DNA of 37,331 nucleotides, taken from positions 1 to 37,331 of IMG/VR virus record IMGVR_UViG_2537561506_000022. The stretch is one strand, 5' to 3'. Source of the stretch: a virus. Its lineage: Duplodnaviria; Heunggongvirae; Uroviricota; Caudoviricetes. Shown here piece after piece: positions 2,773 through 24,367 of this stretch. The translations under genes were made by a program, and so were the position numbers. A model generated the notes under the pieces. It was given only the letters and a program-made list of their open reading frames with translations, made no database searches and was not told the DNA's origin. Each line of letters opens with the position of its first letter. Positions within the stretch are counted from its first letter, which is position 1.

Positions 2773-2794
2773 CGGGGCCATTAGGCCCCGTTTT
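2773..2794 (+). terminator. Hairpin CGGGGCC-ATTA-GGCCCCG plus TTTT (possible attenuator/terminator)
   Basis: 7-bp GC-rich stem followed by a short T run, located between the mini-ORF and the RBS/GTG of ORF 2813. Confidence 0.4.
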
Positions 2795-2812
2795 CATGTC
2801 TGGAGACAGTTT

Positions 2813-4619: not shown

Positions 4620-4668
4620 GTCGTTAATTCCTATACGTAGTTTTACGATACTGAAGCCCTGACGGTCT

Positions 4669-4682
4669 GGCCACCGTGGGGC
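4669..4682. promoter_or_regulatory. Palindrome GGCCACCGTGGGGC in the arc-ant intergenic region
   Basis: Shares the CCACCGTGGGG core with 4874..4888; a GAAGCCC/GGGCTTC hairpin is also present here. Confidence 0.35.
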
Positions 4683-4691
4683 TTCGCTGTT

Positions 4692-4859
4692 TTATGCCAC
4701 GCTATTCTTCTCACCAGTGAGTCCATACACTTTCCTCAGCTGATAGATAATCTCTGTATTGAACTTTCGGCATTCTTTTTCGCCATTTCTTTCAATAGCT
4801 AACTTCACATCGTCCGGAAAACGAACTCGTCGTTGACACATCTCTTTTGCTTTTTGCAT
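4692..4859 (-). CDS. Arc-like ribbon-helix-helix repressor
   Basis: ATG at 4857..4859 (reverse) with GGAG 7 nt upstream (track ORF extends to a GTG at 4880); RVRFPDDVK...NTEIIYQLRKV aligns with P22 Arc (NLRWPREV...NSEIYQRV). Confidence 0.55.
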   Translation of the reverse strand: MQKAKEMCQRRVRFPDDVKLAIERNGEKECRKFNTEIIYQLRKVYGLTGEKNSVA

Positions 4860-4873
4860 TTCATATCTCCTTA

Positions 4874-4888
4874 GCCCCACCGTGGGGC
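4874..4888. promoter_or_regulatory. 15-bp perfect palindrome GCCCCAC-C-GTGGGGC, candidate Arc/Mnt-type operator
   Basis: Sits next to the Arc-like RBS in the divergent arc/mnt control region; CACCGTG half-sites recur at 4899-4907 and, inverted, at 4926-4932. Confidence 0.45.
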
Positions 4889-4979
4889 AAAATAATTGTC
4901 ACACCGTGCGTCATTGATGTCAAGCACACGGTGAGGCATACTTCAATCATTGCAAGTAACTCAATATTTGGTGAAGAAC

Positions 4980-9000: not shown

Positions 9001-9091
9001 GGGCAACATCAAACCCAGTTTGTTCCGGCAAAACATTACCTGACGGGATCAGTCCGTTATTAAGATCTTCAGCTTGTGCATAAACTGGCAT
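6077..9091 (-). CDS. Internal virion / DNA-ejection protein (T7 gp16-position, 1004 aa)
   Basis: Large ORF at the end of the gp8-to-gp16 synteny block; Gly/Ala/Ser-rich segments typical of ejection proteins. Confidence 0.7.
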   Translation of the reverse strand: MPVYAQAEDLNNGLIPSGNVLPEQTGFDVALPEGANPEPLPPEPSVWGAAMRQNNILAGFFRPARQFEPVEGYNPYADKNELHGYEYWGAKFADSRSPEETAWIKQQIDDENEDRRLLSDAGVVGTLASIAAGMDPVTVASMFIPGAQGGALARIGSQIAIGAAGTALSEVVLNNQQITRSWGESAAHIAAGAMMSGVFASAGVALSPSVRAAATREVADALDNMSITSATDRAAASLSDGGSVGAMKIDTATLDDLTPVSGGVVGKAAWKAGSYLTPLTRLMESPSKTVRKTTLELAENNFTLKGNERGIETPVAVETRTRGWQREEAAVVVGNKQAYAKYKADGGDMSFDSFRQQVGNAMRSGDVHANPVVQETAQAMRTVLNRVKVEMQKLGLLPPDEELKALGQASYFPRIYKVGKIISERDKFRRILVDWWSRGNKTLDPEDAEIAADIVINKITGAKVPQDFVSVFSVKAAGSTKERTLNVPDSLIRDYLESDVNYVLQRHIREAAAEIELTRTFGKRTMTERLQLIEDEYDSLLREVPEKIKAKYDESVANLKARYESNGEVVPQGKLDSLMRKYEKELRKEQSRLSKSRANDLRDITALRDRLVGTYGMPDDPSSFFVRAGAFLRDVNFTTKLGGMTVSAIPDLARGVMVNGFRNSMKGYASQISQSPAFKASKEEMLKMGIGLETVLHSRSRAIGDLVDSSSRTTAVEAGMERITDAFGKLTLMDRFNDINKSMNGMLTSDGILSGAFSARRMAKLGINDNMAARIRSEFEKHGEVIDGWHIGNFDKWDDQYVAGVFQSAVLKDVNNTIITPGIGDTPLWASTPMGRTIFQFKSFTTASYNRALLGGLQEGTAQFYYGTAFQIALGSLVYALKEASKGKNVDWSPEKLVLEGIDRSGILGPLMEYNNMAEKATGGAVGLGALFGTGTQSRYASRGFVGSLFGPSFGLADSIIDVTAGVLNGDAGDRIVHNVRTLIPGNNLFWIAPLINQVDPVMR

Positions 9092-11808
9092 TATTTAGAT
9101 CCCCACGAAAAGTAATCTTTAAATTTGTCCATACGTTCGTTATGCAGGCGCTGATACTGCTCATCCAGAGCGCGATGCTTGTCTTTGAAGTTTCGTATAG
9201 CCTGTCCACGCATAATTTCTTCCTGCTCGTACTGCTCCCGTTCCTGCTGCATTTTCTTATAAGGTTCCCAATCTTCTAGTGATGGTTCCCAACGCATAGG
9301 ACGCCCATGTTTGTTATAAAACGGCTGGACCCGATCGATGCCATTTTCATCCTTAGTTCTTACCATAATGGCGTAATCACCATTACGAGGTGTTAACACG
9401 TCAGGGGTTATGAATAATTCTCCATTAATACGACTCTCAGGGGTTTTTGTCTCAACTACAGGAGCATTACCTGACGTGATCCCAAGCAACGTCGGACTGG
9501 TTGTTATAATCTCTTTGCGCTCACCGTACATCAGCCGTTCTTTTTCAGCTTTCCACTGCGCCGCCTGCCAGCCTGACGGCCCATATTGATAAAGCGCCTC
9601 CGGTGCATATTTCATAAACTGCGCTTCTCCGTTAACCTCGCTGATACTCCAGGTGCGGGCTATCTGCTGGTTGGTCATTTGCTTCGCTACGTCAGCGTTA
9701 CCACCAGCAACGCGGTAGTTAATGTCATACAGCGTCTGATAGTCATTACGGAATCTAGCTGCTTCCGGCGTCTGGTCATCCGCAGACGGATCCCAACGGA
9801 ACCACTGCGCCATATTGCTGACAGCAGAATTCATCGCCTTGCTGCGATTATTTTTGTACTCTTTTGAACTCTGCGTTGATGCCAATTGAGCTTTAAGAGC
9901 ATCGGTCTGGTTGTACGTCAGGTTCTGCGCCTGCTCGATAGCCGCATCAGCAGACATGCCAGAATCTGTTAGTTGCTTAACAGTCAGATAAAAACCCTGC
10001 ATATCCTTCGGCATATTTCCAATAGATGCATTGTCTGTTTCATATAACCGACTAAACAAATTCGCTGCATTTTTAACCACTTCCTGATTGCTGGATCTGG
10101 ATACTGCTGAAAGCTGCGTGATGACCTGCGAAGGCATGATGCCAGTCTGAGCCACAAGCCGAACAACCCCATCATGAGTGGAGGCATCATTAATACGAAA
10201 GTTCTGCGCCATTTCTGTGTAATCAGCAGCTTTCTGCATTGATTTGTTGCTTGGGTCTAATTTTTCACCTATTGTCAGCGCCTCATTGAATCTGCGTGAA
10301 TCACGTTGCGCCTGAATTGCTTCATTTGATCGCTGAAGCAATGCAGACAATTTTCCGTAAGCATCGAGTTTTAACGCATAGTGAGGATCGTTAACCTCAG
10401 GCTTCACTTTCTGCATTTCTTCTTGCTGCTGAGAAGGAGGTAAATACTGAATTGCCTGGAATATTCTCGCGTTATCAATCGCTATATCCAGTTGATTGAT
10501 TATTTTATCTGCATTTTTTCCATACCCCCTGATGATAGTCTCCTGAGCCGGTATATAATCTGGAACCTCACCGTTATATAGCTGGGCCATGGTGTTATTA
10601 ATAGCTGGCTCAAGCTGTTCTAATATTAACTTCCTTTGCTTTTCTATCTGACTATTAGCAAGGTTATCTATTTGATAAATAGTCAGCGGATCCATTCCAG
10701 TTTTATTTTTTCTATATCGGGAAAGCCACCCTTGTGTTTCTGATGGAAGATTTCGGATAAATTCTTCTTCTGATATTTCACCTTTACGTGGATCACCGAC
10801 TTTGGCGATCAGTTTATCCACGTTACCCATCCCCCAGTTATATGCTGCTCCGGTCAATATTTCGGAGCCGTACTTACCATACAGTTGATTTACATAGTCA
10901 CTGGCGAGCATTTCATGCTGTTGTTCGTCCGTAGGGTTGTATTTAACGCCACGCTTGGCCGCCAGTTCTTTCCCTGTGCCCGGCATTAACTGGTATTTCC
11001 CCTGGGCTCTCTCTCCAGAAGATGTTATCGGTCCTTCAAGAAGACTACCATCAGGATTAAAATGTCGATCACCTGATTCAACAAGGCGTATGGCACGCAT
11101 GTCCATGCCTCCAGAATCATTTTTCTGAAACAGACCATTTAGCCATCCTTCTGGATTGGCAGCGGCATAATTCTTCGCCCGCATTTCTGTGGCACGGCGA
11201 TCATCACTTTCTATTTCTTCCAGAATGCGTTCTTGTGACCATCCCCTGGCAGCTCCATATCTAGCAATGGCTACCATTCTGGAATTTCTGGCTAAAGTGG
11301 CAGTTTGCGGGTCATTCCAGGCATCCGCTTCATTTTGTATCCATAATTTTCTCGTTGCCTGATTTTGCTCATCTTCATAGGCATTTGTCTGCCCTATCTC
11401 ATGTCTGAGAACTCCAGTACTGAACTGAATTTTCTGTGTTCTGGCTTGTTGCAAAAACATATTTCTTGCTGCTTCATCAGTCAATGAAGCAGCTATTTCT
11501 TCCACATCCTGATCAAATCCAGATATGTACTCTTGCCCCTTACCAATCGCATTTTTGCCTTGTTGTGCATAAAAACCGGTTTGAGGGTTATAAAGACGTT
11601 CATTGCTGCGCTGATTAAGCTGAAGGATGGCATCCTGAGACAATGCAACATTCGCTTTCTGCCTGGCTTCACCATATGCCACCGCATACTGATCTGCGAC
11701 ATTCGCCAGCACCTGACCTGCTTGAGGAACATCGAAGATCTGAAAACCACCGGTTTGCACACCACGACTTTGCACCTGGCGTCCGGATGTAGTAGGAACA
11801 ACTGGCAT
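9091..11808 (-). CDS. Internal virion protein with lytic transglycosylase (SLT) domain (T7 gp15/gp16-like, 905 aa)
   Basis: Contains VESGDRHFNPDG...GKYQLMPGTG, matching the SLT ES...YQLM catalytic signature; position in the T7-like block. Confidence 0.8.
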   Translation of the reverse strand: MPVVPTTSGRQVQSRGVQTGGFQIFDVPQAGQVLANVADQYAVAYGEARQKANVALSQDAILQLNQRSNERLYNPQTGFYAQQGKNAIGKGQEYISGFDQDVEEIAASLTDEAARNMFLQQARTQKIQFSTGVLRHEIGQTNAYEDEQNQATRKLWIQNEADAWNDPQTATLARNSRMVAIARYGAARGWSQERILEEIESDDRRATEMRAKNYAAANPEGWLNGLFQKNDSGGMDMRAIRLVESGDRHFNPDGSLLEGPITSSGERAQGKYQLMPGTGKELAAKRGVKYNPTDEQQHEMLASDYVNQLYGKYGSEILTGAAYNWGMGNVDKLIAKVGDPRKGEISEEEFIRNLPSETQGWLSRYRKNKTGMDPLTIYQIDNLANSQIEKQRKLILEQLEPAINNTMAQLYNGEVPDYIPAQETIIRGYGKNADKIINQLDIAIDNARIFQAIQYLPPSQQQEEMQKVKPEVNDPHYALKLDAYGKLSALLQRSNEAIQAQRDSRRFNEALTIGEKLDPSNKSMQKAADYTEMAQNFRINDASTHDGVVRLVAQTGIMPSQVITQLSAVSRSSNQEVVKNAANLFSRLYETDNASIGNMPKDMQGFYLTVKQLTDSGMSADAAIEQAQNLTYNQTDALKAQLASTQSSKEYKNNRSKAMNSAVSNMAQWFRWDPSADDQTPEAARFRNDYQTLYDINYRVAGGNADVAKQMTNQQIARTWSISEVNGEAQFMKYAPEALYQYGPSGWQAAQWKAEKERLMYGERKEIITTSPTLLGITSGNAPVVETKTPESRINGELFITPDVLTPRNGDYAIMVRTKDENGIDRVQPFYNKHGRPMRWEPSLEDWEPYKKMQQEREQYEQEEIMRGQAIRNFKDKHRALDEQYQRLHNERMDKFKDYFSWGSK

Positions 11809-12383
11809 CAGTAACCTCCTATTTTGAATCGGGAGTCAGAATTCATAAAACCTGAGTTAGATAACATTGGCGTCCCACCACTAGATGTACTTCCTTTAGA
11901 GAACGGACTCCACGTCCCACCAAACATCTGGTACGCACCGTATGCCTTCAGAGGCGCAGTGAGCAATGTTGTTGCTGCTCCCACATTCCCCTGTTTACGG
12001 GCTGAACTGGCTTCTGCTTTATAGTTGGCAGCCTGAACCTGATAACCGTAAGCCTCGCGTTGCGCGTTATTCACCGTCGTCAGCGAATCAAGAGCGCCAA
12101 ACTGGGCAGTGTCGCCAAATATATCCAGCGCGTTACCTGTAGATAAATCAGCGCCGGTAGCCCCCATTGTCGCCGCTTGTGTACCAAGCCGCTGTCGGGT
12201 CTCTCTGCGCCGTTGCTCAGCTTCAGCGTTACCTCTGTTTATTGCATCATTTGCCTGAGCTGTGGCTATATCTGCGTTCGCTTCTGCAACCTTCGAGGCA
12301 TATTTTCCCTGTTGGTACTGGGTGTATGCCTGAATGCCACTCATGGCGAGCATTGCGCCACCAGCAATAACCGGATCGCACAT
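11808..12383 (-). CDS. Internal virion protein B (T7 gp14-like)
   Basis: 191 aa; starts MC...AMSGIQAY like T7 gp14 (MCWAAAIPIAISGAQAI); Ala/Gln-rich. Confidence 0.55.
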   Translation of the reverse strand: MCDPVIAGGAMLAMSGIQAYTQYQQGKYASKVAEANADIATAQANDAINRGNAEAEQRRRETRQRLGTQAATMGATGADLSTGNALDIFGDTAQFGALDSLTTVNNAQREAYGYQVQAANYKAEASSARKQGNVGAATTLLTAPLKAYGAYQMFGGTWSPFSKGSTSSGGTPMLSNSGFMNSDSRFKIGGY

Positions 12384-12850
12384 TATTTTCTCTCCATGTG
12401 AAATCTGTGGAAATTAAGACCAAGAGCACCATAAGGCGCGGCTTCCTCAATCCTGAATCCAAGCCAGTGCAGCCATGCTTTGGCAACATGGTTTCGCTCG
12501 TCGACATAGTTTTCCAGGCGCGGATAAACTGCCAGCATCTGCTGCAACACAGGGCGGCAGTGGCGAAGAAATGTCTTCTGATATTTTTCAATACGGCTGG
12601 TTCCTACCAGCCAGGGCGTACCATTGCCACCGATCATTGACGCCGGAGATACACCAAACATGGTTACCAGTTCTCCGTTCGCGAACCCTGACCAGGCCAT
12701 AGTCGCAGTGCGAAGACCAACACGTAGCGCATCTTCGGTAGTCATCAGTGATACTGCATACAGTTCGTCAACATCAGCCTGACGAACATCCGGCAAAATC
12801 ATCTGAAGATGCTCTTCGGTAGCGGGAATAATTTTAACGTCGATCATCAA
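12383..12850 (-). CDS. Internal virion protein A (T7 gp13-position)
   Basis: 155-aa ORF translationally coupled between the gp12-like and gp14-like genes; assignment by synteny only. Confidence 0.45.
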   Translation of the reverse strand: MMIDVKIIPATEEHLQMILPDVRQADVDELYAVSLMTTEDALRVGLRTATMAWSGFANGELVTMFGVSPASMIGGNGTPWLVGTSRIEKYQKTFLRHCRPVLQQMLAVYPRLENYVDERNHVAKAWLHWLGFRIEEAAPYGALGLNFHRFHMERK

Positions 12851-15318
12851 AATCCCCCAACAGTAAGGCGAGGAATAACGGCAAGAACAGACAGCGGCAA
12901 CGGGTCAAGCTGACGGATTCTTACACGTCCGTTTTTGCCCCAGTTACTGTCCAGTTTCACTTCTACTTTTCCGGTAGCGTCATCAACAGGATCATCGTAG
13001 AACTCGAATTCACGCTGTGGATATTCGTACCATTTACCGCCTGGCGTAGTCGCCCAGATGCCGCGGCTGGCATTCACAACCAGAGTAACGGACGGGATCA
13101 CCTGTTTTTTGTCCAGCAGCGTTTCCTGTCCGTTAATGTTGATATCCAGTGTTTCGAATTCAGCAGTTATTGGCAGGCCGATGTGCACTACAGCCCCCGG
13201 TGATTCCAGCGTGACGGCACCTCCGGAAACCACTTTCTGTGGTTCCACGTTCGCATCAGAGAGAATGTTTACGGTCTGGCCTTCAAGATGAGACAGGCCT
13301 CCAAATGTCCGGCGCGCCATCTGCCAGTTCATGGTGGCCGCATTCCTGAGGGATGGCGGGACGTTCCTGTTGGCACGAACCACTACAGCGGTATTGCTGG
13401 TTACAGAAATAATGTCGCAACGTAATTCTTTTGACACTTCATCGCCAGTACCAGGATCAGTTCCGGCATAAGGGAACTGTAGTTGCGCGCCGACATCACT
13501 ACTGGTGAAGTACGCACCACCAGAAACACTGATTGTATATTCCGCGCGATAATCCCATTCGCCAGAACCACCAGTGATGGTCATCGTTCTGTCAGACGTA
13601 TTTCTTCCATCATAGCTAAGGCCAGAATCAACAAAGAAAGCATCTTCATCGCTGGTAAATAAACGGCTGGACAGTCTCTCGATGTATCTCACTGTTTGCC
13701 CGTTAACGGTTCTGTTAACGACGAAATACACCGCATCTTCATTGCCTTCGCTGATACTGCATGTGCTTTCATATTTTCCGGTACTGGATTGTGGTGCCCA
13801 TGCAAAAACCTGCTGATCACGCAAATAGGTCATCACCAGTAATTTACCGTCATCACGGATGCAGAAGGCGCTGGAGTAAGGGACTATCGAGAAGCACCAG
13901 TCAACAATGCTGTGCTTCTGAAAAAGATGATTGGCAAGGATAGTAAGGTCGTTCCCCTGATAGCCGTCAACATCGAATGAGTAGGCCAGATCACGGACAA
14001 CACTGCCTTTCTCCTGGACGAACAGAGCAATATTCGCCACGGCAATTGGTGGGACATTGCTCGAGCCATTTGATCCCTGAGAGCTGAATGCAAATGATGA
14101 TGGGGTAAGCACTTTGTTCTGGTCTCCAGTGATGACGTACTCACCTCCGGAAGTCAGCGCCACCAGCGAACCAACATCAATCAGGTGGCGGATCTCATTA
14201 ACCTGACGCCCGGCATAGGTGTAGATAATTCTGTCGTCATCCTGCGTAGGATTGCTTTTGCCAAAATCCTTATAATCACCAGTACGGCTGGCCCAGATAG
14301 TCTGAGGGAACGCAGTCGATGCGGCGAAGTAAAGACGTTGTTGATAATAAACAACAGTGCCAGGATAACCATTAACACTGTTCCAGGCATATTTAGCCCA
14401 TTTATAGCTGGCATTATCCTCGCCAACGACCTGCGAAGGGATATAGGAAATCACCTCGGCAGTTGCAGTAGTTCCATTTGCAGCAGAGATACGGGCAATG
14501 CCAAAACCACTGTGCAGATACTCCCACTCAATGCCGGTATCATCATCACCGGATCCGCCCCAGCCATCCCATGATGTGCCTTCTGTATGAGAAGGGCGCA
14601 AAGTGCCTGTTTTGCCTGCTGTAACGGCGCGATAGTAGTTACTGTCTGCACGGCGAATATCGCCAATCGACGTACTCTTACTGGTTTCCCATACCGGCAC
14701 TGAATCCACTGCAGGCTGTTCCAGATAGAACAATTTGCCTACCTGCTCCGCGCCAAAAATAGAGGCGTTTGCCGTTAACGTAATTGTCCCGGTGCTGGCG
14801 CTGGCATAAACCGTCACTGACTCGTCAATATTGATATCTTCAAATGGCCCGTTCTTCGTTACCACATCAACAAGTTGCCAGTTGTCATGCGCATAGCGCC
14901 GCAACTCTTTCGGCGGGTATTCCGGGTGAACCAGCGTAAGCACGTCAGCGCTTTGCGTGAATTTAATTCGGAACAGATCAGCTTCAGTATATGGCGTGGC
15001 AATTTCATAAATAACATTGCTGCTGTTCAGCACCAACGCACCATCTTTGATAACGCGCATGTACTGGTGTCCGAACTCCAGAGCATAGGTCTGAACCGTC
15101 GAGAACTGGAACGGGATCAGGCGGCATTTCCGATTTGGGTATTTGGCGGCACCAACAAAACGCGTACCAGGTCGATTCTCAACGCCGCCATACTGCCGCA
15201 CGATAAAGTTATCGCACTTGCGCAATGCCACCTGGTACTTCGCCATGTCGATACGACCATACAACGATGGTCCAATCTCACCACCGGCAAAGCTGGGCTG
15301 GATCCAACTGATAGCCAT
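12847..15318 (-). CDS. Tail tubular protein B / nozzle (T7 gp12-like, 823 aa)
   Basis: N-terminus MAISWIQPSFAGGEIGPSLYGRID resembles T7 gp12 MALISQSIKNLKGGISQQPD; size and position match. Confidence 0.7.
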   Translation of the reverse strand: MAISWIQPSFAGGEIGPSLYGRIDMAKYQVALRKCDNFIVRQYGGVENRPGTRFVGAAKYPNRKCRLIPFQFSTVQTYALEFGHQYMRVIKDGALVLNSSNVIYEIATPYTEADLFRIKFTQSADVLTLVHPEYPPKELRRYAHDNWQLVDVVTKNGPFEDINIDESVTVYASASTGTITLTANASIFGAEQVGKLFYLEQPAVDSVPVWETSKSTSIGDIRRADSNYYRAVTAGKTGTLRPSHTEGTSWDGWGGSGDDDTGIEWEYLHSGFGIARISAANGTTATAEVISYIPSQVVGEDNASYKWAKYAWNSVNGYPGTVVYYQQRLYFAASTAFPQTIWASRTGDYKDFGKSNPTQDDDRIIYTYAGRQVNEIRHLIDVGSLVALTSGGEYVITGDQNKVLTPSSFAFSSQGSNGSSNVPPIAVANIALFVQEKGSVVRDLAYSFDVDGYQGNDLTILANHLFQKHSIVDWCFSIVPYSSAFCIRDDGKLLVMTYLRDQQVFAWAPQSSTGKYESTCSISEGNEDAVYFVVNRTVNGQTVRYIERLSSRLFTSDEDAFFVDSGLSYDGRNTSDRTMTITGGSGEWDYRAEYTISVSGGAYFTSSDVGAQLQFPYAGTDPGTGDEVSKELRCDIISVTSNTAVVVRANRNVPPSLRNAATMNWQMARRTFGGLSHLEGQTVNILSDANVEPQKVVSGGAVTLESPGAVVHIGLPITAEFETLDININGQETLLDKKQVIPSVTLVVNASRGIWATTPGGKWYEYPQREFEFYDDPVDDATGKVEVKLDSNWGKNGRVRIRQLDPLPLSVLAVIPRLTVGGF

Positions 15319-16642: not shown

Positions 16643-17080
16643 TTAACCAGTTACTTTTGAGCGGATCGGGTACGGCGTATTGGCATCAACATCCAGACTG
16701 ATACCCGCAGTGAATTTGCCGGCCGTTAGTGGGCCAGTTGCGACGGAGTAGTTAACACGCAGATATCGCTGAACACCGGCTGGCACCTTTGCAGAAACAA
16801 CTCGCTTACCTGCTGTCAGGGTGGCCTTTGCCAACGCACCACTATCATAAATAGTGGTCCAAGAGCTGTTATTCTCACTCGTCTGCAACTGGATGTTTAC
16901 AGTTGCCTCACCACTTGCCGTGGCGGCTTCGTTAACCAGCACCCAAAACTCAAGCGGGTAACCCACACCGATATCGCGACGGTTTCCATCAATTGGACCG
17001 AGATCGATTACGTCAGTAGAAGCCGCGGTATTCGTAACCGCCTGAGCTTCGGAGAACATCAACAGTTTGTCGGTGATCAT
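16643..17080 (-). CDS. Hypothetical virion protein directly after the capsid gene (possible decoration protein)
   Basis: 145 aa, Thr/Ala/Val-rich; GGAG RBS; position only. Confidence 0.5.
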   Translation of the reverse strand: MITDKLLMFSEAQAVTNTAASTDVIDLGPIDGNRRDIGVGYPLEFWVLVNEAATASGEATVNIQLQTSENNSSWTTIYDSGALAKATLTAGKRVVSAKVPAGVQRYLRVNYSVATGPLTAGKFTAGISLDVDANTPYPIRSKVTG

Positions 17081-17131
17081 CTTCTTTCTCCATTAGTGGG
17101 TCTGTTACGACCCACAGGTTAATAACAGGCG

Positions 17132-18124
17132 TTACACCACGCGGGCTTCTGTTTCCAGAAGCGCATCAGTTTCACGGATTGGTACACCACGGAATGAAGT
17201 CCACCACTCGCCTTCTGTCTCTTTTACGCTGATCGCCAGAGATGTTTTCTCCAGAGATTGCAGATCAAGAGCCTGGCCTACAGTGCGGTTCATGTAGAAC
17301 ACCGGGCGACCCATGCCACGATTTGGAATGCGATGCAGTGCTTTAACCATCAACTTCGCAATATTTGCGGCAGAGGAAGGTTCTGAAAGATTGCTGACAT
17401 CGATGTTTGCAATGCGAACAACATAACGCCAGTCACGCAGAGCAAGTCCGTTGTCCCATTTGTAATGGGTACGGTAGCCTTCGTACTTGCCGCCATTAGC
17501 ATCTTCCAGTGTCACCTGGCCTTTATCTTCCATCTGAATGCCAGCCTTCTGCCCTTTCGGGAAGATGCCATGCACTGTGTTTTCGCCCCACACCACTAAC
17601 CAGATTGAGGTGTTATCTGTACCCGTGCCACCAGCATCAATGATGTTCTGAGCATTACCTGCAGACAGGCTGGAATAGCGGGAGGACAGTCCCATAAACT
17701 GCTGAGGGTTAACGCTGGAATCACCATAAAACAGCGTCTGCGCCATCTGCTGATTCATCGCTTCAATAAATGCGCGGTCTTCAGACAGGCGGAATTCGGC
17801 GGTATTGCCGTTCAGATCAGCCAGTGACTTATCGACTTCAGCATAGGTTTCCAGCATGCCAACGGAATCGGTTACCTGCACTGTGGTTGATTTGCTTGGC
17901 TGTACGCCATAGTTCAGCAAACGCCAGGTAGCTGAAGGTAAACCAGAACGAATGGTGGTTCGGTGTCCGGTAGGAAGGTTCCCTTCGACAAAAGGCATAT
18001 CCTGAAGGATCGGGTTAGTTTGACCGAGAAGCTCGATAATCTTATCGACTTTCCCGTTTGGATCGACGCGCTTACCCCAGTCAGCCAGCGTTAGCGCAGT
18101 TAAGCCTTTAACAGCCATTGTCAT
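17132..18124 (-). CDS. Major capsid protein
   Basis: 330-aa ORF immediately after the scaffold gene in portal-scaffold-capsid order. Confidence 0.8.
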   Translation of the reverse strand: MTMAVKGLTALTLADWGKRVDPNGKVDKIIELLGQTNPILQDMPFVEGNLPTGHRTTIRSGLPSATWRLLNYGVQPSKSTTVQVTDSVGMLETYAEVDKSLADLNGNTAEFRLSEDRAFIEAMNQQMAQTLFYGDSSVNPQQFMGLSSRYSSLSAGNAQNIIDAGGTGTDNTSIWLVVWGENTVHGIFPKGQKAGIQMEDKGQVTLEDANGGKYEGYRTHYKWDNGLALRDWRYVVRIANIDVSNLSEPSSAANIAKLMVKALHRIPNRGMGRPVFYMNRTVGQALDLQSLEKTSLAISVKETEGEWWTSFRGVPIRETDALLETEARVV

Positions 18125-18132
18125 TTCCTCTC

Positions 18133-18834
18133 TTATTTGCCATAGAGCACTTCGGCCGCACTACGCTGGCCTTCATTACCACCGGTGACCATGCCATCTT
18201 CAGACATCGCCTTTCCGATTTTCACGAACGTTTTGACCAGATCAGGGTGATTACCCAGTCCGGTGGTGTTCAGATATTCTTTGAGTTCAGGTGTCCCGAA
18301 CTGGTCAAGCGCACGCTGTGCGGCGCTAAGGTTAGAAATCAACTTGTCGCCACCGATTTCTTTGTCAGCTTTTACATCAGCAGCCCACTGCTCGGTTGTT
18401 TTCTGCCAGGCTTCTGCCTGGCGCTGCTGCACACCTGCCAGAATCTTCGGATAAACATCAACCAGCTTTTGCGCTTGCTCGTTGGTCAGGTTAAGTTCTC
18501 GCGCCACCGGCTCGAACTCCTTCAACGCTTCTGTATCCAGCTCTACGCCTTCGGCAGCCTGAAACTCGTACTTCTCAGGCGCACCCTCTGGTTTATCGCC
18601 GTCCTTTTTTTCATCCTGCTTATCGTTTTCAGGCTTTTTGTCATCAGCAGGTTTATCGCCATCAGCAACAGGTTGTGGCTTATCACCTTCCTGTTGTGAT
18701 GGATCACCAACTGGAGCAGGGTTATCACCTGCAGGCGCTGACGGTTCTGACGCAGCCGGAGCTGCTCCACCATCGACTGGTTGCTCATTGCAAAGACGGC
18801 GATACAGCAAACGCTCAAATAAATTCATGATCAC
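18133..18834 (-). CDS. Scaffolding protein
   Basis: Highly acidic, Pro/Asp/Lys-rich low-complexity N-terminal half; position between portal and capsid (T7 gp9-like). Confidence 0.65.
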   Translation of the reverse strand: MIMNLFERLLYRRLCNEQPVDGGAAPAASEPSAPAGDNPAPVGDPSQQEGDKPQPVADGDKPADDKKPENDKQDEKKDGDKPEGAPEKYEFQAAEGVELDTEALKEFEPVARELNLTNEQAQKLVDVYPKILAGVQQRQAEAWQKTTEQWAADVKADKEIGGDKLISNLSAAQRALDQFGTPELKEYLNTTGLGNHPDLVKTFVKIGKAMSEDGMVTGGNEGQRSAAEVLYGK

Positions 18835-19127
18835 TCCTGTTCACTGGCCTCTTTGGCCATCTTCAAATACTGTTCAGGGCAATGAGCCATAACGCGCTGA
18901 AACAGTTCCAGCGCCAGATTGCGTTGCCCCTCATTAAATGCCATTGCCATAGCATCCATCGGAGAGATAGCGGAAAACACCCGGCCTTTCTCCAGCACAG
19001 ACCAGACAACGCGACGCCCCTGTTCACTGCTCATGACAAAGCGAATGTCATCAATTTCACGCTGTGCCATGTCACGTTGCTTACGGGCGTTTTCTTCTTT
19101 CAGTTGATCGTCTTCGTAATCTGTCAT
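18831..19127 (-). CDS. Hypothetical head-module protein
   Basis: 98-aa charged ORF translationally coupled between portal and scaffold genes. Confidence 0.5.
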   Translation of the reverse strand: MTDYEDDQLKEENARKQRDMAQREIDDIRFVMSSEQGRRVVWSVLEKGRVFSAISPMDAMAMAFNEGQRNLALELFQRVMAHCPEQYLKMAKEASEQE

Positions 19128-20803
19128 TGTGATTGCCCACCCTGACCACTAACTGCATTCGCCATAGCTGACAAAACACTCGGATCCGAAGTTTTAGCTT
19201 CGCTTAGCGTCTTGGCACCCTGTGCCGCCGCCATCCCCATCGCCATCATTTGTTGCTGCTGTTGCTGCTGTGCCCGTTGCTGGCGAGCCTGATCAACCTG
19301 TTCCTGCGGAACAATGACGGTTGGAGACACTCCGGACATATCAGCGAATGCATCGATCGCCTGATCAACGTTGAGTTTGTCGAGAGCTTCTGGTTTCGCT
19401 TGCGCAAGTTGACCAATGAAGTTAACCGTGGACGCCAGACTGGACAGGCCGATAGACTTCTGCGCCTGAGCCATGACGGAAATGTATTCGACCTTCAGGG
19501 GCATGCCTTCCATCGCGTCAGGCGGTGGCGGCAGCATGTTTTTACGCACCATCATCGAGAAAGCGCGGTCAATGAGAGGATTAAGACATTCGTCGTTCAG
19601 ACGCTCCAGAACCGGCCCCAACATCAGAAGTTTTTCTTCTTTCATTTCGATCACCGCTTCAACAGGCATCGAGCGGGTATTGATGTTCTGCAACATCATG
19701 AACAGATCGACAAAGTAGGCGCTGTTAATGATTTGACGAGTGTCCTGAATGTCTGCTACCAGATCTGCTGTACTGGGGTTAACCAGATAAGCAGGCCTGA
19801 AACCATCCTGACCAGTAATCTGATCGATATACGTGATGTCGCCAGGAAGAAGGGAGGCGCGCTGATTCTTGAGGGAAGTCGGAGCAACCATCGGCGGATT
19901 GGTGGCTTTATCAATCAACTGCGACTTGCGCTTCTGAAGAAGCTGCAATGCCTTAACAGGTCCAAGCGCCAGCATACCCGGGCATGATGATCCATAAACA
20001 TCTTCGCCGTTAACTTCCCAGCGCGGAGCCATAATTGGAAACTCATCGAATCCGGACTCACGCAACAACTTGTCGTTATCGCCGCCAACCTCGTAATAAA
20101 CCGATTTGAATGGCTTGTTCTTGCTATCCAGCTTCGATGTATCGCGGTCAATGTTCGGGTAAACCGAATGCATCACCTCAATCCACTTCTCGTAGGTGCC
20201 AATTTCCCACATGCTTTTTACGTATTCGCTGACGTTATTTAGCCCGAACTCCTGAACAAGCTGACGAACAGTCATAGAGAACTTGCGAAAACAGGTGTCC
20301 ACACTGCCACGAGGTGAGTTAGCCAGGTAGTAACTACCTATCGGGAATGGCATTGTGCGAATGATGTCCTCGTCATCCTCCAGCACCGCCATTGCACCAG
20401 TGCTGTATGTGCCGAGGCTTCCGTATAACTGCGGAAGAGACTGGTAGAGATTCGAATTATTGAACATATCATTCATGCGGTTCTGCACCGCCTCAAGCCA
20501 CAACTTAACAGGGCCATAATCCATCATTTCAGGATCTGGCGTAGCCAGGCGAAACCACGGACGCGCGGGGCTTGTGATGCCTGACATCATGCCGCTGGCG
20601 AGAGTGCGCGCCGCCATAGTCCCGGTCGAATCAATAATGCGTGTATTGCGTCGATCGTTACGGTTGACCTCAGAAGTCAGAAAGCGGGAACCACGCGGGT
20701 TGATGTAATCACTCAACTCGCGCCAGTGCGGCTCGAACGACTGACGCTCGCTTTCAAGTTGTGCGAACTGTTTGTTCAATCGCTCTTTAGTTGTTTCCGC
20801 CAT
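19124..20803 (-). CDS. Portal (head-tail connector) protein, T7 gp8-like
   Basis: 559 aa; Gln/Ala/Met-rich C-terminus (RQQRAQQQQQQQMMAMGMAAAQGA) resembles the T7 gp8 C-terminus. Confidence 0.8.
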   Translation of the reverse strand: MAETTKERLNKQFAQLESERQSFEPHWRELSDYINPRGSRFLTSEVNRNDRRNTRIIDSTGTMAARTLASGMMSGITSPARPWFRLATPDPEMMDYGPVKLWLEAVQNRMNDMFNNSNLYQSLPQLYGSLGTYSTGAMAVLEDDEDIIRTMPFPIGSYYLANSPRGSVDTCFRKFSMTVRQLVQEFGLNNVSEYVKSMWEIGTYEKWIEVMHSVYPNIDRDTSKLDSKNKPFKSVYYEVGGDNDKLLRESGFDEFPIMAPRWEVNGEDVYGSSCPGMLALGPVKALQLLQKRKSQLIDKATNPPMVAPTSLKNQRASLLPGDITYIDQITGQDGFRPAYLVNPSTADLVADIQDTRQIINSAYFVDLFMMLQNINTRSMPVEAVIEMKEEKLLMLGPVLERLNDECLNPLIDRAFSMMVRKNMLPPPPDAMEGMPLKVEYISVMAQAQKSIGLSSLASTVNFIGQLAQAKPEALDKLNVDQAIDAFADMSGVSPTVIVPQEQVDQARQQRAQQQQQQQMMAMGMAAAQGAKTLSEAKTSDPSVLSAMANAVSGQGGQSQ

Positions 20804-20817
20804 TTCAATGACTCCGG

Positions 20818-21024
20818 TTACTGACCAAGCAGCGTTTTACCGCTGGTATTAGCGGTTGATGTGTCGCCCTGAGAACCGGTAAGCAGCGTAGAACTACGAC
20901 CAGCAGCAGCGCGACGGCGACGTGTTTCTTCGTCGCGGGCATCAACAACGGCGGCATCCTGCTCCTGTGGTGCTGCCTGAACTTCTGGTGTTGCAGGCAC
21001 TGATGGTGAGCTACCCATGCACAT
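20818..21024 (-). CDS. Small Ala/Thr/Ser-rich protein upstream of portal
   Basis: ATG with GGAG 8 nt upstream; preferred over the overlapping frame 20805..21044, whose translation is His/Arg/Cys-rich and implausible. Confidence 0.4.
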   Translation of the reverse strand: MCMGSSPSVPATPEVQAAPQEQDAAVVDARDEETRRRRAAAGRSSTLLTGSQGDTSTANTSGKTLLGQ

Positions 21025-21114
21025 ATCAATGACTCCGTACGCAATTAAATTATTACCAATTTAACCACATATGATTTATTTATCGTAGATAGTTGACATT
21101 TAACGCACAAATTA

Positions 21115-21129
21115 TTACCTTTCAGGTAA
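21115..21129. promoter_or_regulatory. Palindrome site d TTACC-TTTCA-GGTAA next to a TTGACA hexamer
   Basis: Perfect copy of the 15-bp palindrome; the surrounding ~70 bp resemble the region around site a (1205..1259). Confidence 0.4.
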
Positions 21130-21451
21130 TCAAAGGGTTCATTCCGGTTATTAACCTGACTGGCTTGTCGTTAAATTGAACAGGTGGAGTGAGCTTTTAT
21201 TTTGAGCAGTACGGCGTATGGCACATGCGCCGATAGCGGTCTGGATACGTTTAAGGGGCACCCTCCCTTGCTCTGGCAAACGAACCAGGTAGCCGGGATG
21301 TGCAAGTCGAGCGGTTTTATTCCGCGCACGGGGATTCACCATCCCGGCGATTCGGTGTGACGCCTCGGAAGAGACGAGGGTACAACGATGAGAGCATTTA
21401 TGGAGCCGCGACAAAGTGTGGCGCCTTAACAGGCTAAGTGCTCTCAGCGTT

Positions 21452-21528
21452 GTGGCATTAGCTCAGTTGGACAGAGCAACCGCCTTCTAAGCGGTTGGTC
21501 GCAGGTTCGAATCCTGCATGCCACGCCA
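21452..21528 (+). tRNA. tRNA-Arg (anticodon UCU), phage-borne
   Basis: 77-nt cloverleaf read by eye: acceptor GTGGCAT/ATGCCAC, D-arm AGCTC...GAGC, anticodon stem ACCGC/GCGGT with loop CTTCTAA, T-arm GCAGGTTCGAATCCTGC, discriminator G and encoded CCA. Confidence 0.9.
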
Positions 21529-21571
21529 GAATCACGCCTAAGGACCGTGATGCCAGAAGTTCCAGGTGCTT

Positions 21572-21614
21572 GGCGGTGATAGTTTCCCTTGAAGGACTAT
21601 CACCGCCCTTTTTA
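21572..21614 (+). terminator. Intrinsic terminator downstream of the tRNA
   Basis: 12-bp stem GGCGGTGATAGT / ACTATCACCGCC followed by CTTTTTAC. Confidence 0.65.
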
Positions 21615-21691
21615 CAGCAGGACGCCATTGCGATGACTTCATGCTGTAAACCCGTACAGCCACGGAAGGCATAACTCATTGCTTCCAGTTC

Positions 21692-21716
21692 GCCCGGTTC
21701 GCCGGGCATTTTTTTA
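21692..21716 (+). terminator. Second intrinsic terminator-like hairpin, ~10 nt before the next gene's RBS
   Basis: GCCCGG-TTCG-CCGGGC followed by ATTTTTTT. Confidence 0.5.
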
Positions 21717-21726
21717 AGGTGAGATT

Positions 21727-22098
21727 ATGAACGACCAGCAAATCGAAAAAGAAATCGTTGAGAAAGGCAAAACGGCACCGCGCGTTACGCCAGACCATAT
21801 CGAAGGCATTATTGCTCAGGAGGCATATTTCACAGCAGAAGATGGTGCCTTTGGCAAAGCCATAAAAGCGAAACATACTGGCGGAGAGGTAAACTACCAG
21901 CCGCACGAATCACTTTCTCTGCTGACGTTCTGCGTCCTGGTGCTGCGCAACGGCTTCACCGTCACCGGAGAGAGTTCCTGTGCAAGTCCGGAAAATTTTG
22001 ATGCAGAAATTGGTCGGAAGATTGCCCGGCAGAATGCTGTAAACAAAATCTGGATGCTCGAAGGTTACTTGCTGAAGCAGAAGTTAAGCGAGCAATAA
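21727..22098 (+). CDS. Phage protein, possibly Gp49/Sf6 gp66-like family
   Basis: 123-aa ORF with AAGGTGAG RBS; family call is from memory of the motif pattern and unverified. Confidence 0.55.
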   Translation: MNDQQIEKEIVEKGKTAPRVTPDHIEGIIAQEAYFTAEDGAFGKAIKAKHTGGEVNYQPHESLSLLTFCVLVLRNGFTVTGESSCASPENFDAEIGRKIARQNAVNKIWMLEGYLLKQKLSEQ

Positions 22099-22118
22099 CA
22101 CCGTGGCATGTCACAAAC

Positions 22119-22146
22119 AGCCAGCCTATGAGCTGGCTTTGTTTTA
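22119..22146 (+). terminator. Intrinsic terminator (AGCCAGC stem plus T-run)
   Basis: AGCCAGC-CTATGA-GCTGGCT followed by TTGTTTTA, between convergent genes. Confidence 0.45.
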
Positions 22147-22188: not shown

Positions 22189-23664
22189 TTAAGCATAAGG
22201 GTCATAATCCGTTATGGCCCTTCCCTGCTGGCTTTGCTGTCCTGGTATATTTATGCGTTTCGAGACCGGGAAAGCAAACGTCAGCAGTAGCGCATCGCCT
22301 TTACCAGGAGAACGCCCAAGACGCTCTTTGATATCTTCCTTCGGTTCGATAACGATTTTACCGTCCACACGAACTTTGTACTCTGCCGCCGACAGGTCGT
22401 CTGCAGTTTCTTGGTCATCCAGCATGCCGCCCAGCCTCAGCCATGTCTTACATGAGTTGAACATCTCCCCACGCTTGTTAAGCATCTGCGGGTCAGTGGA
22501 CGCACCGCCGAACGGAACAAGTTGCCATGTACGTCCCCAGCCATCACCGATTGACTTCAAACCGGTTCCATAACCGAAGTCGATGAACACCGCGTCAGCC
22601 TGATACTGGTCTTCAAAGTCAGCGATACGCTTCGCCATAATCAGATCGTCGGTGGTCTTGTTACCAGTCCATAGCACCTTACTGTGCAGCCCCTGCCGCA
22701 GGTATATCACAGCGTCATCAACGCCGGAGTATGCCGGGTCAACGCCGATTATCACCGGAGCATGTGCAACCTGCGCAGCGGTTACCACCCGTTTCATTGC
22801 CTCGTCAGTAAGGCCGGTAGGGATAAACTGCAATTCAGATGCATCCGGGAATATGCCGCGCACACGGATTTTAACGAAGTCGCTGTCTTCCCCGTAGTCA
22901 TCAACCCATTTCTGCAACTGCTGTTTGTTAGTGCCTTCCACCGTCCGGCTGTCAATCTGCGCAGTTTTCCAGCGGTGTTTATATTTGCGGAAACATTCGC
23001 GGAAACGCCCGGTGTTACGTGTAGGGTTTCCGAATGCCACCCAGATAATCTCAGTGTCTTCGTCCGTCAGCGCACCCTCTGCTACCTCCCACACCAGATC
23101 GGCAATGTTGGATGCTTCGTCGAATACCACGATGATGCGTTTGCGCTCGTTGTGTAGTCCGGCGAATGCCTCAGTGTTGTGCTCAGACCATGGGATTGCG
23201 TCAGCTCGCCACCGCTTGTCGTGCCCAGGGTCATTGCTGTACATCGCGGTAGCGGTACAGGTAAACCAGTCTTTCGTGATAGCAAGGTTCGACCACTTGA
23301 TAATTTCCGGCCAAGTCTTCGTTCGTAGCTGGTTGTCGGTGTTGGCGGTCACCACGACCTTACAATCCTCGCAAGTGGACATGCCCCAGTCGATCAGCAT
23401 TGAGATGAATGCGGATTTACCAATACCGTGACCAGAAGCACGTGCCAGCATAAGCGGCTGATATCGCGTCTCTGGATTCTGCAGGTGATCACGTATCTCT
23501 CGGAACGCATCGGCCTGCCACTGACGTGGACCGGTGGCATGTGCCAGTTCAGTACCCTCTTCCCCCCACGGGAACGCATAGAGGGCATAGCCAAGCGGAT
23601 CGTGAGTGAACCCTGCAATATCCTCGATTAACTGCTCTTCAGGAGATAACGCTGTATCTGTCAC
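22189..23664 (-). CDS. Terminase large subunit
   Basis: 491 aa; Walker-A-like ASGHGIGKS; adjacent to and coupled with the small-subunit gene upstream of portal. Confidence 0.85.
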   Translation of the reverse strand: MTDTALSPEEQLIEDIAGFTHDPLGYALYAFPWGEEGTELAHATGPRQWQADAFREIRDHLQNPETRYQPLMLARASGHGIGKSAFISMLIDWGMSTCEDCKVVVTANTDNQLRTKTWPEIIKWSNLAITKDWFTCTATAMYSNDPGHDKRWRADAIPWSEHNTEAFAGLHNERKRIIVVFDEASNIADLVWEVAEGALTDEDTEIIWVAFGNPTRNTGRFRECFRKYKHRWKTAQIDSRTVEGTNKQQLQKWVDDYGEDSDFVKIRVRGIFPDASELQFIPTGLTDEAMKRVVTAAQVAHAPVIIGVDPAYSGVDDAVIYLRQGLHSKVLWTGNKTTDDLIMAKRIADFEDQYQADAVFIDFGYGTGLKSIGDGWGRTWQLVPFGGASTDPQMLNKRGEMFNSCKTWLRLGGMLDDQETADDLSAAEYKVRVDGKIVIEPKEDIKERLGRSPGKGDALLLTFAFPVSKRINIPGQQSQQGRAITDYDPYA

Positions 23665-24257
23665 TGATTGCCATCCTGACGTTCTTTCAGTCTCTTCCTG
23701 GCTGCCGCTATGCGATCAGCAATTGTCACATTCACATTAACATCCAGGCGTTCTTTGAATGCGTTGACGTCGACGTGCTTACCAATCAGTTCGAGGTTCT
23801 TCACCTTGTCAGGCCATTTAATTTTTTTGAGGATTGTCTCTATCGAATCCTCGTTCATGTTCATGATGGTCGATGACAGATCAAAGCCACTAAGCGTAGT
23901 GCGCCAGATTTTCGGCCACTCACGGATTGGTTTAAGGCTCCCATCGTCGTTGAGGATATCGATCACGTCCATCTGGTCGATCTCCACCAGGCGCATGAGA
24001 ACGTAATCAGCACTGACGCGCATTCGTTTGTTGCGCTCCTCCATCAACTCGGCAATCCGTTTTTGAATGCGTTCATCGCGCATCATGACACTGGCTTTAA
24101 CTGCCGCTGTATTTGGGGAGAATCCTGCGTTAATCGCTGCCTGAGTCTGGTTTTCAGGCGTTTTGATGTATGACTGGCAATAAGCCTCCTGCATTGCTGT
24201 TAGTGGCTTAAATTGCGTTGATTTGCGTTTATAGGTTTTAGGTTCAGCAGGCATCAT
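23661..24257 (-). CDS. Terminase small subunit
   Basis: ATG-ATG at 24252..24257 (reverse) is the likely start (track ORF extends to a TTG at 24335); directly precedes the large subunit. Confidence 0.65.
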   Translation of the reverse strand: MMPAEPKTYKRKSTQFKPLTAMQEAYCQSYIKTPENQTQAAINAGFSPNTAAVKASVMMRDERIQKRIAELMEERNKRMRVSADYVLMRLVEIDQMDVIDILNDDGSLKPIREWPKIWRTTLSGFDLSSTIMNMNEDSIETILKKIKWPDKVKNLELIGKHVDVNAFKERLDVNVNVTIADRIAAARKRLKERQDGNQ

Positions 24258-24274
24258 AACCACCGTGGTAATAG

Positions 24275-24289
24275 TTACCGTTGTGGTAA
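24275..24289. promoter_or_regulatory. Palindrome site m TTACC-GTTGT-GGTAA plus adjacent near-copy, within an 11-bp direct repeat upstream of the terminase small-subunit gene
   Basis: Perfect 15-bp family member; near-copy TAACC-ACCGT-GGTAA at 24258..24272; direct repeat GTGGTAATAGT at 24265 and 24283. Confidence 0.4.
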
Positions 24290-24367
24290 TAGTACCATGC
24301 AAAATAAAGCCGCCATAGTTGGCGGCAGTATTCAAAACACATCAAATTCATCATGCATAATCCACTC

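Follow-up and report, generated by a model that had tools for sequence, protein, structure and literature searches.

A stretch of viral DNA of 37,331 nucleotides (nt), positions 1 to 37,331 of IMG/VR record IMGVR_UViG_2537561506_000022 (hereafter the window), represents a phiV10/epsilon15-like (Uetakevirus) genome, and on its plus strand, at 21203-21451, it encodes a conserved structured RNA of about 250 nt whose fold, comprising helices P1 to P5, two pseudoknots and a closing hairpin P6, is shown by covariation. The RNA lies in the leader of a short plus-strand islet, directly before a tRNA-Arg, in a region 96% identical to Escherichia phage phiV10; the islet sits between the portal and terminase genes, which run on the minus strand. 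It represents a large uncatalogued family that is a member of none of the known families with which we compared it, and, as far as its sequence distribution indicates, it is a mobile module of three unrelated phage groups. A previous inspection of this DNA, made without database searches (the sequence-only reading), had itself named a lack of conserved structure in the leader among the outcomes that would count against it, and covariation establishes that such structure is present.

The fold z-score of the 322 nt leader against shuffled sequences was -3.55 on the plus strand and -2.04 on the minus strand. To gather homologs, we scanned IMG/VR and a single genome of each species for sequence patterns and then searched with an nhmmer profile; the 274 instances of the RNA thus recovered fell into 49 clusters at 93% identity. 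A first covariation test used a MAFFT alignment of 39 diverse representatives and 35 base pairs, amounting to 1365 cells, of which 99.4% were paired, with compensatory changes at 13 of the 35 pairs. None of 500 shuffles attained the observed values of pairing and compensation, and in slid controls, where the 3' partners were moved by 1-3 columns, pairing fell to 26-46%. When 94 distinct further sequences were aligned to a covariance model derived from this alignment (R1), 99.0% pairing was recovered and 13 of 25 pairs showed compensatory changes. Taken over all slid controls, pairing ranged from 26 to 56%. The second pseudoknot (PK2), between CACC of the P4 loop and GGUG, retains its pairing as AACC/GGUU in three sequences. 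The first (PK1, GCACAU with AUGUGC) is invariant on both sides and is thus compatible with the structure, but not proven. The base stem of P6 is held by compensatory changes in relatives, for example GAUGAGAGCA/UGCUCUCAGC, GGUAAGAGCA/UGCUCUUUCC and GGGUAGCUCAC/GUGAGCUACUC, and its 3' strand ends at 21451, directly before the first nucleotide of the tRNA at 21452. About 60 positions of the RNA are invariant; the invariant stretches in the 39-sequence alignment are UAUGGCACAUG, AGCGGUC, GGUAGCCGGAAUGUGCAAG, CACCA, CGGUGUGAC and GGAAGAG, and the helices between them vary in a compensatory way. Invariant G-U pairs (49-109, 50-108 and 15-25) would be A-C mismatches on the opposite strand, which identifies the plus strand as the RNA strand.

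Searches of the leader (21130-21451) against the 4227 families of Rfam 15 returned no match even at E-values up to 10 with permissive filters. The copy in phage mEp460 likewise gave no Rfam match at E up to 10, 20 related loci gave none for the structured RNA at gathering scores, and the Rfam models of the GOLLD and ROOL RNAs did not match it. Full-text literature searches with the invariant sequences and with descriptive terms found no description of the RNA, though papers outside the searched collection are possible, and a table of phage small RNAs (sRNAs) in a 2025 review contains nothing comparable. The only open reading frames (ORFs) in the ~320 bp leader are a minus-strand, TTG-initiated ORF of 87 amino acids (aa) at 21151-21414 and similar ones. 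No frame is open in more than 15 of the 49 representative homologs, the ORFs differing in strand, frame and length, and no Pfam family was found in the minus-strand ORFs; we accordingly rejected the minus-strand ORF as a gene, in keeping with the sequence-only description of the leader as devoid of a convincing ORF. A small ORF in P6 (MEPRQSVAP, 21401-21430) was also discarded, being kept only in the phiV10 and mEp460 types, with an unrelated P6 tip elsewhere.

Window positions 21211-21455 are matched at ~82% identity by lambdoid phages (cdtI, mEp460, Stx2c phages, 2H10 and Ayreon) and at ~79% over 163 nt by P1, P7, D6 and SJ46, and Uetakevirus relatives of Salmonella, Klebsiella and Enterobacter show ~70% identity. 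The lambdoid and P1-type matches always lie in DNA that is unannotated or bears spurious annotation only. Among 5426 complete E. coli genomes, 1839 contain the RNA, in 1920 places on chromosomes and 551 on plasmids, and none of the E. coli records listed annotates a feature where it matches. The real matches among species-representative genomes belong to Enterobacterales. Exact 19-mer matches in Chloroflexi, Bacteroidota, Planctomycetota and other distant phyla were dismissed as chance, because ten loci lack a profile match and ~17 such matches are expected for 18 specified bases in 2 x 596 gigabases. A 1.75-kb contig binned as a Bacillota metagenome-assembled genome carries a typical enterobacterial copy (locus L282, 1150-1334, 177 bits) and is probably mis-binned or a contamination. 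Short BLAST hits in mEp390, KpF5 and others had suggested a free-standing P4-PK2-P5 sub-element, but mEp390 has a full-length member, so that these hits reflect BLAST truncation. No copy was detected by R1 in HK022 or in the K-12 Qin prophage; what Qin has in common with this family is a tRNA-like segment upstream of dicF only. One locus (L139) holds two copies on the same strand, at 3976-4161 and 4782-4966, 800 nt apart with an opposite-strand 166-aa gene between them, of which the downstream copy is mutated at otherwise invariant positions (119 versus 176 bits). In a BUCT708-type lambdoid locus (L132), repeated P5-like hairpins, GCCGG-GAAAGA-CCGGC, flank the RNA on both sides (~2375-2395 and 2790-3050), and one P5-like hairpin stands directly before P6 in mEp390; some such repeats may be ribosome-binding sites or coding repeats.

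Three genomic contexts of the RNA were recognized, all of which appear to be early operons under repressor control. The Uetakevirus copies from E. coli, Salmonella and Klebsiella lie between the gp3/portal and terminase genes, behind an operator-covered promoter. In the lambdoid phages mEp460, cdtI, mEp390, BUCT708 and the Stx2c phages, the RNA lies 150-270 nt past the end of a gene for a cI-like repressor (helix-turn-helix plus S24 peptidase), on the same strand, and the order of elements is the cI terminator, operator-like repeats, a PL-like promoter and then the RNA, ~45-100 nt past the predicted transcription start; in mEp460, Q is present and no N gene is annotated. In the phage-plasmids of the P1/P7 type (P1, P7, D6 and SJ46), it is found 14 nt after tRNA-Ile (trnI) and ~100 nt before ban, in the C1-controlled ban operon. 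As it always occurs in transcripts that are apparently repressor-controlled, the RNA is probably among the first products after infection or induction. An internal deletion in epsilon15 removes most of it, so that it is dispensable for viability and accessory. This deletion (L003, 1799-1970) fuses the P2a hairpin to the 3' half of T1, the first terminator after the tRNA slot, and leaves 38 bits versus ~160 for intact copies; the annotated RNase III site of epsilon15 covers P1 and upstream sequence.

The putative islet promoter of the window consists of TTGACA, a 17-nt spacer and TACCTT, a layout also seen in epsilon15; a consensus promoter scan made no call at this site, its -10 hexamer matching at 3 of 6 positions. 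The -10 is overlapped by a perfect palindrome belonging to an operator family, ATTACC-N5-GGTAAT, of which 12 sites with at most 2 mismatches occur over the whole window versus 1.16 expected by chance. This agrees with the sequence-only placement of the leader start at an operator and a TTGACA hexamer. In the epsilon15 record, the equivalent spacer bears annotated sites for repressor, IHF and RNase III, the repressor site being at the place homologous to this operator. Two of the sites in the window form a tandem pair immediately upstream of the small-terminase gene, and the site at 21114-30 separates the islet promoter from what may be a divergent gp3/portal promoter on the minus strand (TTGTGC-17 nt-TACGAT, ~21091-21063).

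The tRNA-Arg that follows P6 was identified by both ARAGORN and Rfam, just where the sequence-only reading had seen a plus-strand tRNA-Arg(UCU) between the minus-strand terminase and portal genes, and it is also annotated in the O157 typing phages 9 and 10. It is the sole tRNA that the two methods recover from the window, so that the degenerate second tRNA which that reading had entertained is not borne out; in relatives, a tRNA-like element instead replaces the tRNA-Arg itself. Simple pattern matching places a tRNA or tRNA-like element directly beside the RNA in 72% of untruncated instances (185 of 256), and wherever a tRNA adjoins the RNA, the two have their strand in common. In most relatives the position after P6 is taken by a genuine tRNA or by one of two types of tRNA-like element. 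The type-1 element, a cloverleaf of the form GUGGUGA-AU-GCGCAGGCUGAUGCGC...GCCGGAGAUCAGCACCGGC-CACCAC with a variable insertion, occupies the exact slot of the tRNA-Arg, and its D-stem (GCGC/GCGC, GCAC/GUGC, GCCC/GGGC) and T-stem (GCCGG/CCGGC, GUCGG/CCGAC, GCUGG/CCAGC) both covary. The type-2 element is 87% identical to K-12 Qin DNA immediately upstream of dicF. Rfam tRNA matches of ~125 nt lie downstream of the RNA, on the same strand, in two further loci (L165, 1077-1203, 43.9 bits; L238, 1309-1433, 29.7 bits); ARAGORN missed both, which are either tRNA-like elements or tRNAs that contain a large insertion. In P1, the plus strand within the minus-strand plp gene carries the 5' half of a tRNA-like element (UUGUGGUGAAUGCACAGGCUGAUGUGC; L007 2296-2322, corresponding to NC_005856 69818-69844), and the annotated "dicF-like region" matches the Qin-type tRNA-like segment (also L007 1217-1306), so that the P1 ban operon contains several pieces of the same set of non-coding modules.

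Codon use offers a more ordinary role for the tRNA. AGA is used at roughly 2 per 1000 codons in E. coli. Its frequency in the window ORFs is 7.1 per 1000, and 35 of the 81 AGA codons fall in five ORFs of the tail and tailspike region (6077-15318), with none in the head genes (16643-20803), the gene directly behind the islet or the large terminase gene (22189-23664). This frequency and this concentration make ordinary codon supplementation a sufficient reason for the presence of the tRNA-Arg, and the codon-usage idea of the sequence-only reading is compatible with these data.

Beyond the tRNA, the islet continues with a small hairpin, a DicF-related module that ends in the terminator T1, and a further segment that ends in a second terminator, T2 (Table 1). 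The hairpin motif AAUCACGCCUNAGGACCGUGAU also follows the tRNA-like element in lambdoid and Uetakevirus relatives, and the stretch from the tRNA to T1 is conserved in relatives. The T1 module and K-12 DicF have UUGGCGGU...CCGCCCUUUUU in common; the module scores below the gathering threshold of the Rfam DicF family RF00039 (16.9 bits, E 0.76, versus 48), and its mEp460 counterpart gave no DicF match at E up to 10. The K-12 DNA that immediately precedes dicF (L287, 2752-2870, corresponding to NC_000913 1649251-1649369) shows 87% identity to the tRNA-like stretch from P6 to the equivalent terminator in a prophage of Citrobacter braakii (L277), and it opens with the GUUGUGG in which P6 ends; the window itself had no BLAST hit to Qin. 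A test of DicF-ftsZ pairing with RNAduplex gave energies that failed to separate even authentic DicF from shuffled sequences. T1 and T2 are both conserved in relatives and have the G+C-rich hairpin and U-run by which intrinsic terminators are predicted; the T2 stem is followed by ATTTTTTT (in RNA, AUUUUUUU). The sequence-only reading had foreseen two terminators about 80 nt apart, and the scan places their stems at 85 nt. Its distance of 10 nt from T2 to the next ribosome-binding site is accurate when counted from the T2 stem, the site itself (AAGGTGAG) directly following the T2 U-run and leading to the ATG at 21727. It had also supposed a small RNA in the leader or between the terminators. 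The leader instead holds the ~250-nt double-pseudoknot RNA, which is not small, whereas the inter-terminator segment is indeed sRNA-like and is conserved in E. coli, Klebsiella and Salmonella relatives, the sequence past T2 being variable.

The slot after T2 (window 21716-22140; loci L072, L114, L010, L251, L140 and L096) is a hot spot with different cargo genes in different relatives. Several of them encode there a protein of 263-296 aa (MKNFKVISMFESFKELF... or MLESLKEFTTSTF...), whose gene has a separate promoter, TTGATG...TATAAT, and an operator-like ATTACCTTAAAGGTAT that overlaps this promoter. The presence of a separate promoter and operator for the gene after T2 in several relatives, and the retention of the T2 module while the downstream gene varies, suggest that the islet is a self-contained, multi-product non-coding operon and that the gene at 21727 is cargo behind it. 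Elsewhere in the window, Rfam matches at gathering scores are isrK (1676-1751), C4 antisense RNA (1776-1861), sar RNA (4621-4688) and sRNA-Xcc1 (35262-35351); isrK and C4 also occur in mEp460, a carrier of the structured RNA, where they adjoin the gene for the Rha antirepressor.

Table 1. Features of the islet and its surroundings in the window
Feature	Position	Strand	Details
Portal gene	19124-20803	-	PF12236, 7e-186
Small gp3-like ORF	20818-21024	-	
Putative early promoter	21093..21121	+	-35 TTGACA at 21093-98, 17-nt spacer, weak -10 TACCTT at 21116-21
Repressor operator	21114..21130	strandless	perfect palindrome ATTACCTTTCAGGTAAT; overlaps -10
5' leader, predicted transcription start to structured RNA	21131..21202	+	GGUGGAGUG(A/C)GCUUU; partly conserved in epsilon15 and a Klebsiella relative
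Structured RNA core	21203..21403	+	covariance model R1, 163.5 bits, E 2e-53; sole copy in window
P1	21212-17/21227-32	+	
PK1	21221-26 with 21298-21303	+	
P2	21236-43/21286-93	+	encloses variable hairpin P2a
Junction helix	21306-08/21346-48	+	
P3	21311-14/21322-25	+	
P4	21331-34/21342-45	+	
PK2	21337-40 with 21354-57	+	
P5	21363-67/21375-79	+	loop GAAGAGA
P6, long closing hairpin	21384..21451	+	variable tip; minimum free energy -31.6 kcal/mol, z -4.95
tRNA-Arg, anticodon UCU (TCT)	21452..21528	+	ARAGORN; Rfam RF00005, 73.3 bits versus threshold 29; CCA encoded at 21526-21528
Small conserved hairpin	21531..21551	+	AUCACG...CGUGAU
DicF-related module ending in T1	21561..21613	+	T1 stem 21572-21607, 14 pairs, then CUUUUU; terminator scan
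Inter-terminator segment, sRNA-like, ending in T2	21614..21716	+	T2 stem 21692-21707, 6 G-C pairs, U-run 21709-15; terminator scan
Cargo gene, Phage_gp49_66 family	21727..22098	+	123 aa; PF13876, 4.6e-34
Hairpin terminator T3	22119..22138	strandless	between cargo gene and convergent terminase gene; terminator scan; terminator annotated here in phiV10
Large terminase gene	22189-23664	-	phiV10 annotation only; no Pfam family found
Small terminase gene	23661-24335	-	PF03592
Operator-like sites, 17 bp	start at 1244, 1624, 2668, 21114, 24256, 24274, 28121, 28183, 30129, 30514, 31226, 31288		

The explanation we favor, with a probability of about 0.4, is that the element gives rise early to a separate and stable RNA, which either has its effect in trans on a component shared among Enterobacterales or functions as an RNA-only particle, because three unrelated lineages share it, its positions in their operons differ and, in some Uetakeviruses, nothing downstream is dependent on it. 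The islet would then be an early transcription unit under the phage repressor, yielding RNAs rather than proteins. Transcription would start near 21128, from TTGACA and the weak -10 under the operator, so that the unit would be silent in the lysogen and expressed early, with the ~250-nt RNA (21203-21451) as its first product. RNase P cuts at the 5' end of every tRNA, and a cut at G21452 would at the same time create the 3' end of the upstream RNA, which, buried in P6, would be protected from 3' exonucleases. The tRNA-Arg may thus have a dual role, decoding AGA for the tail genes and serving as the processing signal that frees the structured RNA, and in relatives the tRNA-like element, or in P1 the preceding tRNA-Ile, would stand in for it. 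From the remainder of the transcript would come the DicF-related module, with its end at T1, and another conserved sRNA-like segment, with its end at T2. In the least certain step, the freed RNA may act after infection or induction on RNA polymerase, the ribosome, an RNase or a defence protein, or form an RNA-only assembly.

Several points weigh against this explanation. Every step past the folding of the RNA is inference, and 5' leaders released by RNase P are usually degraded. No recognizable tRNA or tRNA-like neighbor is found in 28% of the 256 untruncated instances, and in P1 the RNA is devoid of P6 and is preceded, not followed, by its tRNA. In lambdoid phages, moreover, the RNA is the first element transcribed from PL, upstream of a strong terminator and of all the early-left genes, with no N annotated; at this position a role in cis fits at least as well as one in trans.

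The main rival is therefore a cis-acting processive antiterminator or anti-pausing RNA, comparable to HK022 put or Bacillus EAR, in which the nascent RNA would fold, bind RNA polymerase and cause T1 and T2 (or, in lambdoid phages, the DicF-type and later terminators) to be read through. The interval of ~45-100 nt past the predicted PL start is the slot of lambda nutL-N and of HK022 putL (PMC9378689), the combination of Q with no annotated N in mEp460 would be in keeping with such a function, and the early genes (xis and int among them in L277) are separated from the RNA by a strong intrinsic terminator. In the window, the cargo gene has nothing but a ribosome-binding site after T2 and would need read-through. 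On the other hand, we found no similarity to putL or putR: the nhmmer profile and the covariance model were both blank in the PL and PR regions of HK022, the element does not contain the putL/putR consensus GUCGGG.GC.CGGCG.GGU..AGGAUGA, and alignment of the put sequences showed them to be unrelated to it. Copies in mEp460, mEp390 and the other lambdoid loci are on the PL side only, with none on the PR side, and in P1, Pban and the first terminator-like hairpin are 2.3 kb upstream of the copy, which immediately precedes ban. Furthermore, since the gene after T2 has its own promoter in several Uetakeviruses, there is no downstream need for antitermination in them, and a polymerase made resistant to terminators would also pass T3 and transcribe the terminase gene in antisense. 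We therefore regard antitermination as unlikely, albeit a serious competitor.

A ligand- or factor-sensing leader, that is, a riboswitch-like attenuator setting termination at T1 and T2, is improbable. The many invariant unpaired positions and the two pseudoknots do recall aptamer domains, terminators do lie downstream, and, as read from the sequence, AUCACGCC (21531-38) could pair with either CGUGAU (21546-51) or the 5' strand of T1 (GGCGGUGAU). However, the terminator is at least 170 nt from the core, with P6 plus either a complete tRNA or the variable tRNA-like element in between, which leaves no overlapping expression platform, and no terminator follows the P1 copy. The double-pseudoknot architecture and the number of invariant positions could also be those of a self-cleaving or otherwise catalytic RNA that processes the polycistronic transcript, which has to be cut into several RNAs. 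Given that no Rfam ribozyme family matched even at E up to 10, that ordinary processing by RNase P and RNase E is enough for maturation and that no conserved candidate cleavage site was identified, we consider catalysis quite improbable. We attach very little probability to a passive regulatory spacer of promoter/operator, leader and RNase III site only, as the epsilon15 annotation of its equivalent spacer and the tolerance of epsilon15 for the loss of most of the RNA might suggest; such a spacer is contradicted by covariation and distribution, as it would not keep 35 base pairs through compensatory changes, or about 60 invariant positions over three unrelated phage lineages and operon contexts. 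Finally, a minus-strand protein gene (the 87-aa ORF) or an element that works at the DNA level (a primosome site, for instance, or a single-strand origin) is hardly credible, for although ORFs annotated as hypothetical proteins overlap the element in some genomes (mEp460_037 covers homologous DNA) and hairpins are in principle possible in single-stranded DNA, the frames are not conserved or assigned to any Pfam family, the helix substitutions are compensatory, the G-U pairs fix the plus strand as RNA-like and all adjacent tRNAs are on that strand.

Among known systems, the closest in kind, though not by homology, are GOLLD and ROOL, large phage RNAs with elaborate folds and no known function or protein partner that are often near tRNA islands (PMC12286853). 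Like them, the present RNA is encoded by phages and prophages, has a covariation-supported pseudoknotted fold and lies next to tRNAs, which in GOLLD are sometimes even internal. It differs in its size, ~250 nt versus ~580 to over 800 nt, in having so far been seen only in phages of Enterobacterales, and in its probable repressor-controlled early expression. In maturation logic, the closest are the C4 RNA of P1/P7 and the CI RNA of P4, phage regulatory RNAs that are cut from operon leaders by RNase P and are then stable regulators. These RNAs of 69-77 nt are themselves tRNA-like substrates with antisense targets within the same operon. The structured RNA resembles them in being encoded in a leader and, probably, in maturing by tRNA processing, and differs in being separate from the tRNA-like element. 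The dicB operon of Qin with its DicF RNA is similar as an early-left operon with a cI-like repressor and a processed sRNA ending at an intrinsic terminator, but Qin lacks the structured RNA and the T1 module is sub-threshold on the DicF model.

The put RNA suppresses termination in cis by binding the zinc-binding domain of the RNA polymerase beta' subunit. As the structured RNA is common to unrelated phages, it presumably needs no phage-specific protein, as is the case for put. In position, HK022 putL is its closest counterpart, lying just downstream of PL in lambdoid phages without N and with terminators downstream (PMC9378689). However, put is ~70 nt long, consists of two stem-loops and is found downstream of both PL and PR, whereas the structured RNA has ~250 nt, two pseudoknots and a single copy, and occurs also in mid-operon in P1 and in the self-contained Uetakevirus unit. 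Lambda nutL-N is likewise comparable as the first element of the PL transcript, and P5 (CCUCG-GAAGAGA-CGAGG), which is followed by a long hairpin that bears an RNase III label in the epsilon15 annotation, recalls boxB (GCCCU-GAAGA-AGGGC), though its loop has 7 nt versus 5 and there is no N gene. A nut reading, with P5 as boxB and UGCUCUUU in the 3' strand of P6 as boxA, was rejected, as the latter is swapped through compensatory changes in L200 and L285; the boxA-like UGCUCU is thus a structural feature of P6 and not a sequence motif.

In kind, this is an orphan structured phage RNA associated with tRNAs, and there is a substantial chance that it works by a new mechanism. That it founds a new functional class is possible but doubtful: such a class could be a third RNA-only processive antiterminator, after put and EAR, replacing N at PL in a large group of temperate phages of enterobacteria, or an effector RNA that RNase P releases from a tRNA-tagged precursor and that may self-assemble like ROOL and GOLLD or serve as a decoy for a defence protein or an RNA-binding protein of the host. 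Few genetic systems have been studied as thoroughly as P1 and the lambdoid phages, yet they carry the RNA without annotation, as do about one in three complete E. coli genomes, among them those of pathogens that bear Stx phages. Action in cis would explain how lambdoid phages without N get past their early terminators; action in trans would make it a new phage RNA directed at the host, and the tRNA-associated GOLLD and ROOL would gain a small and tractable counterpart in enterobacteria. The phage tRNA-Arg and the tRNA-like elements would also be recast as processing handles of a polycistronic non-coding operon linking tRNAs, DicF-type sRNAs and the structured RNA. Either novel reading, if true, would place a widespread and experimentally tractable RNA in P1, in relatives of the Stx phages and in a third of sequenced E. 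coli genomes.

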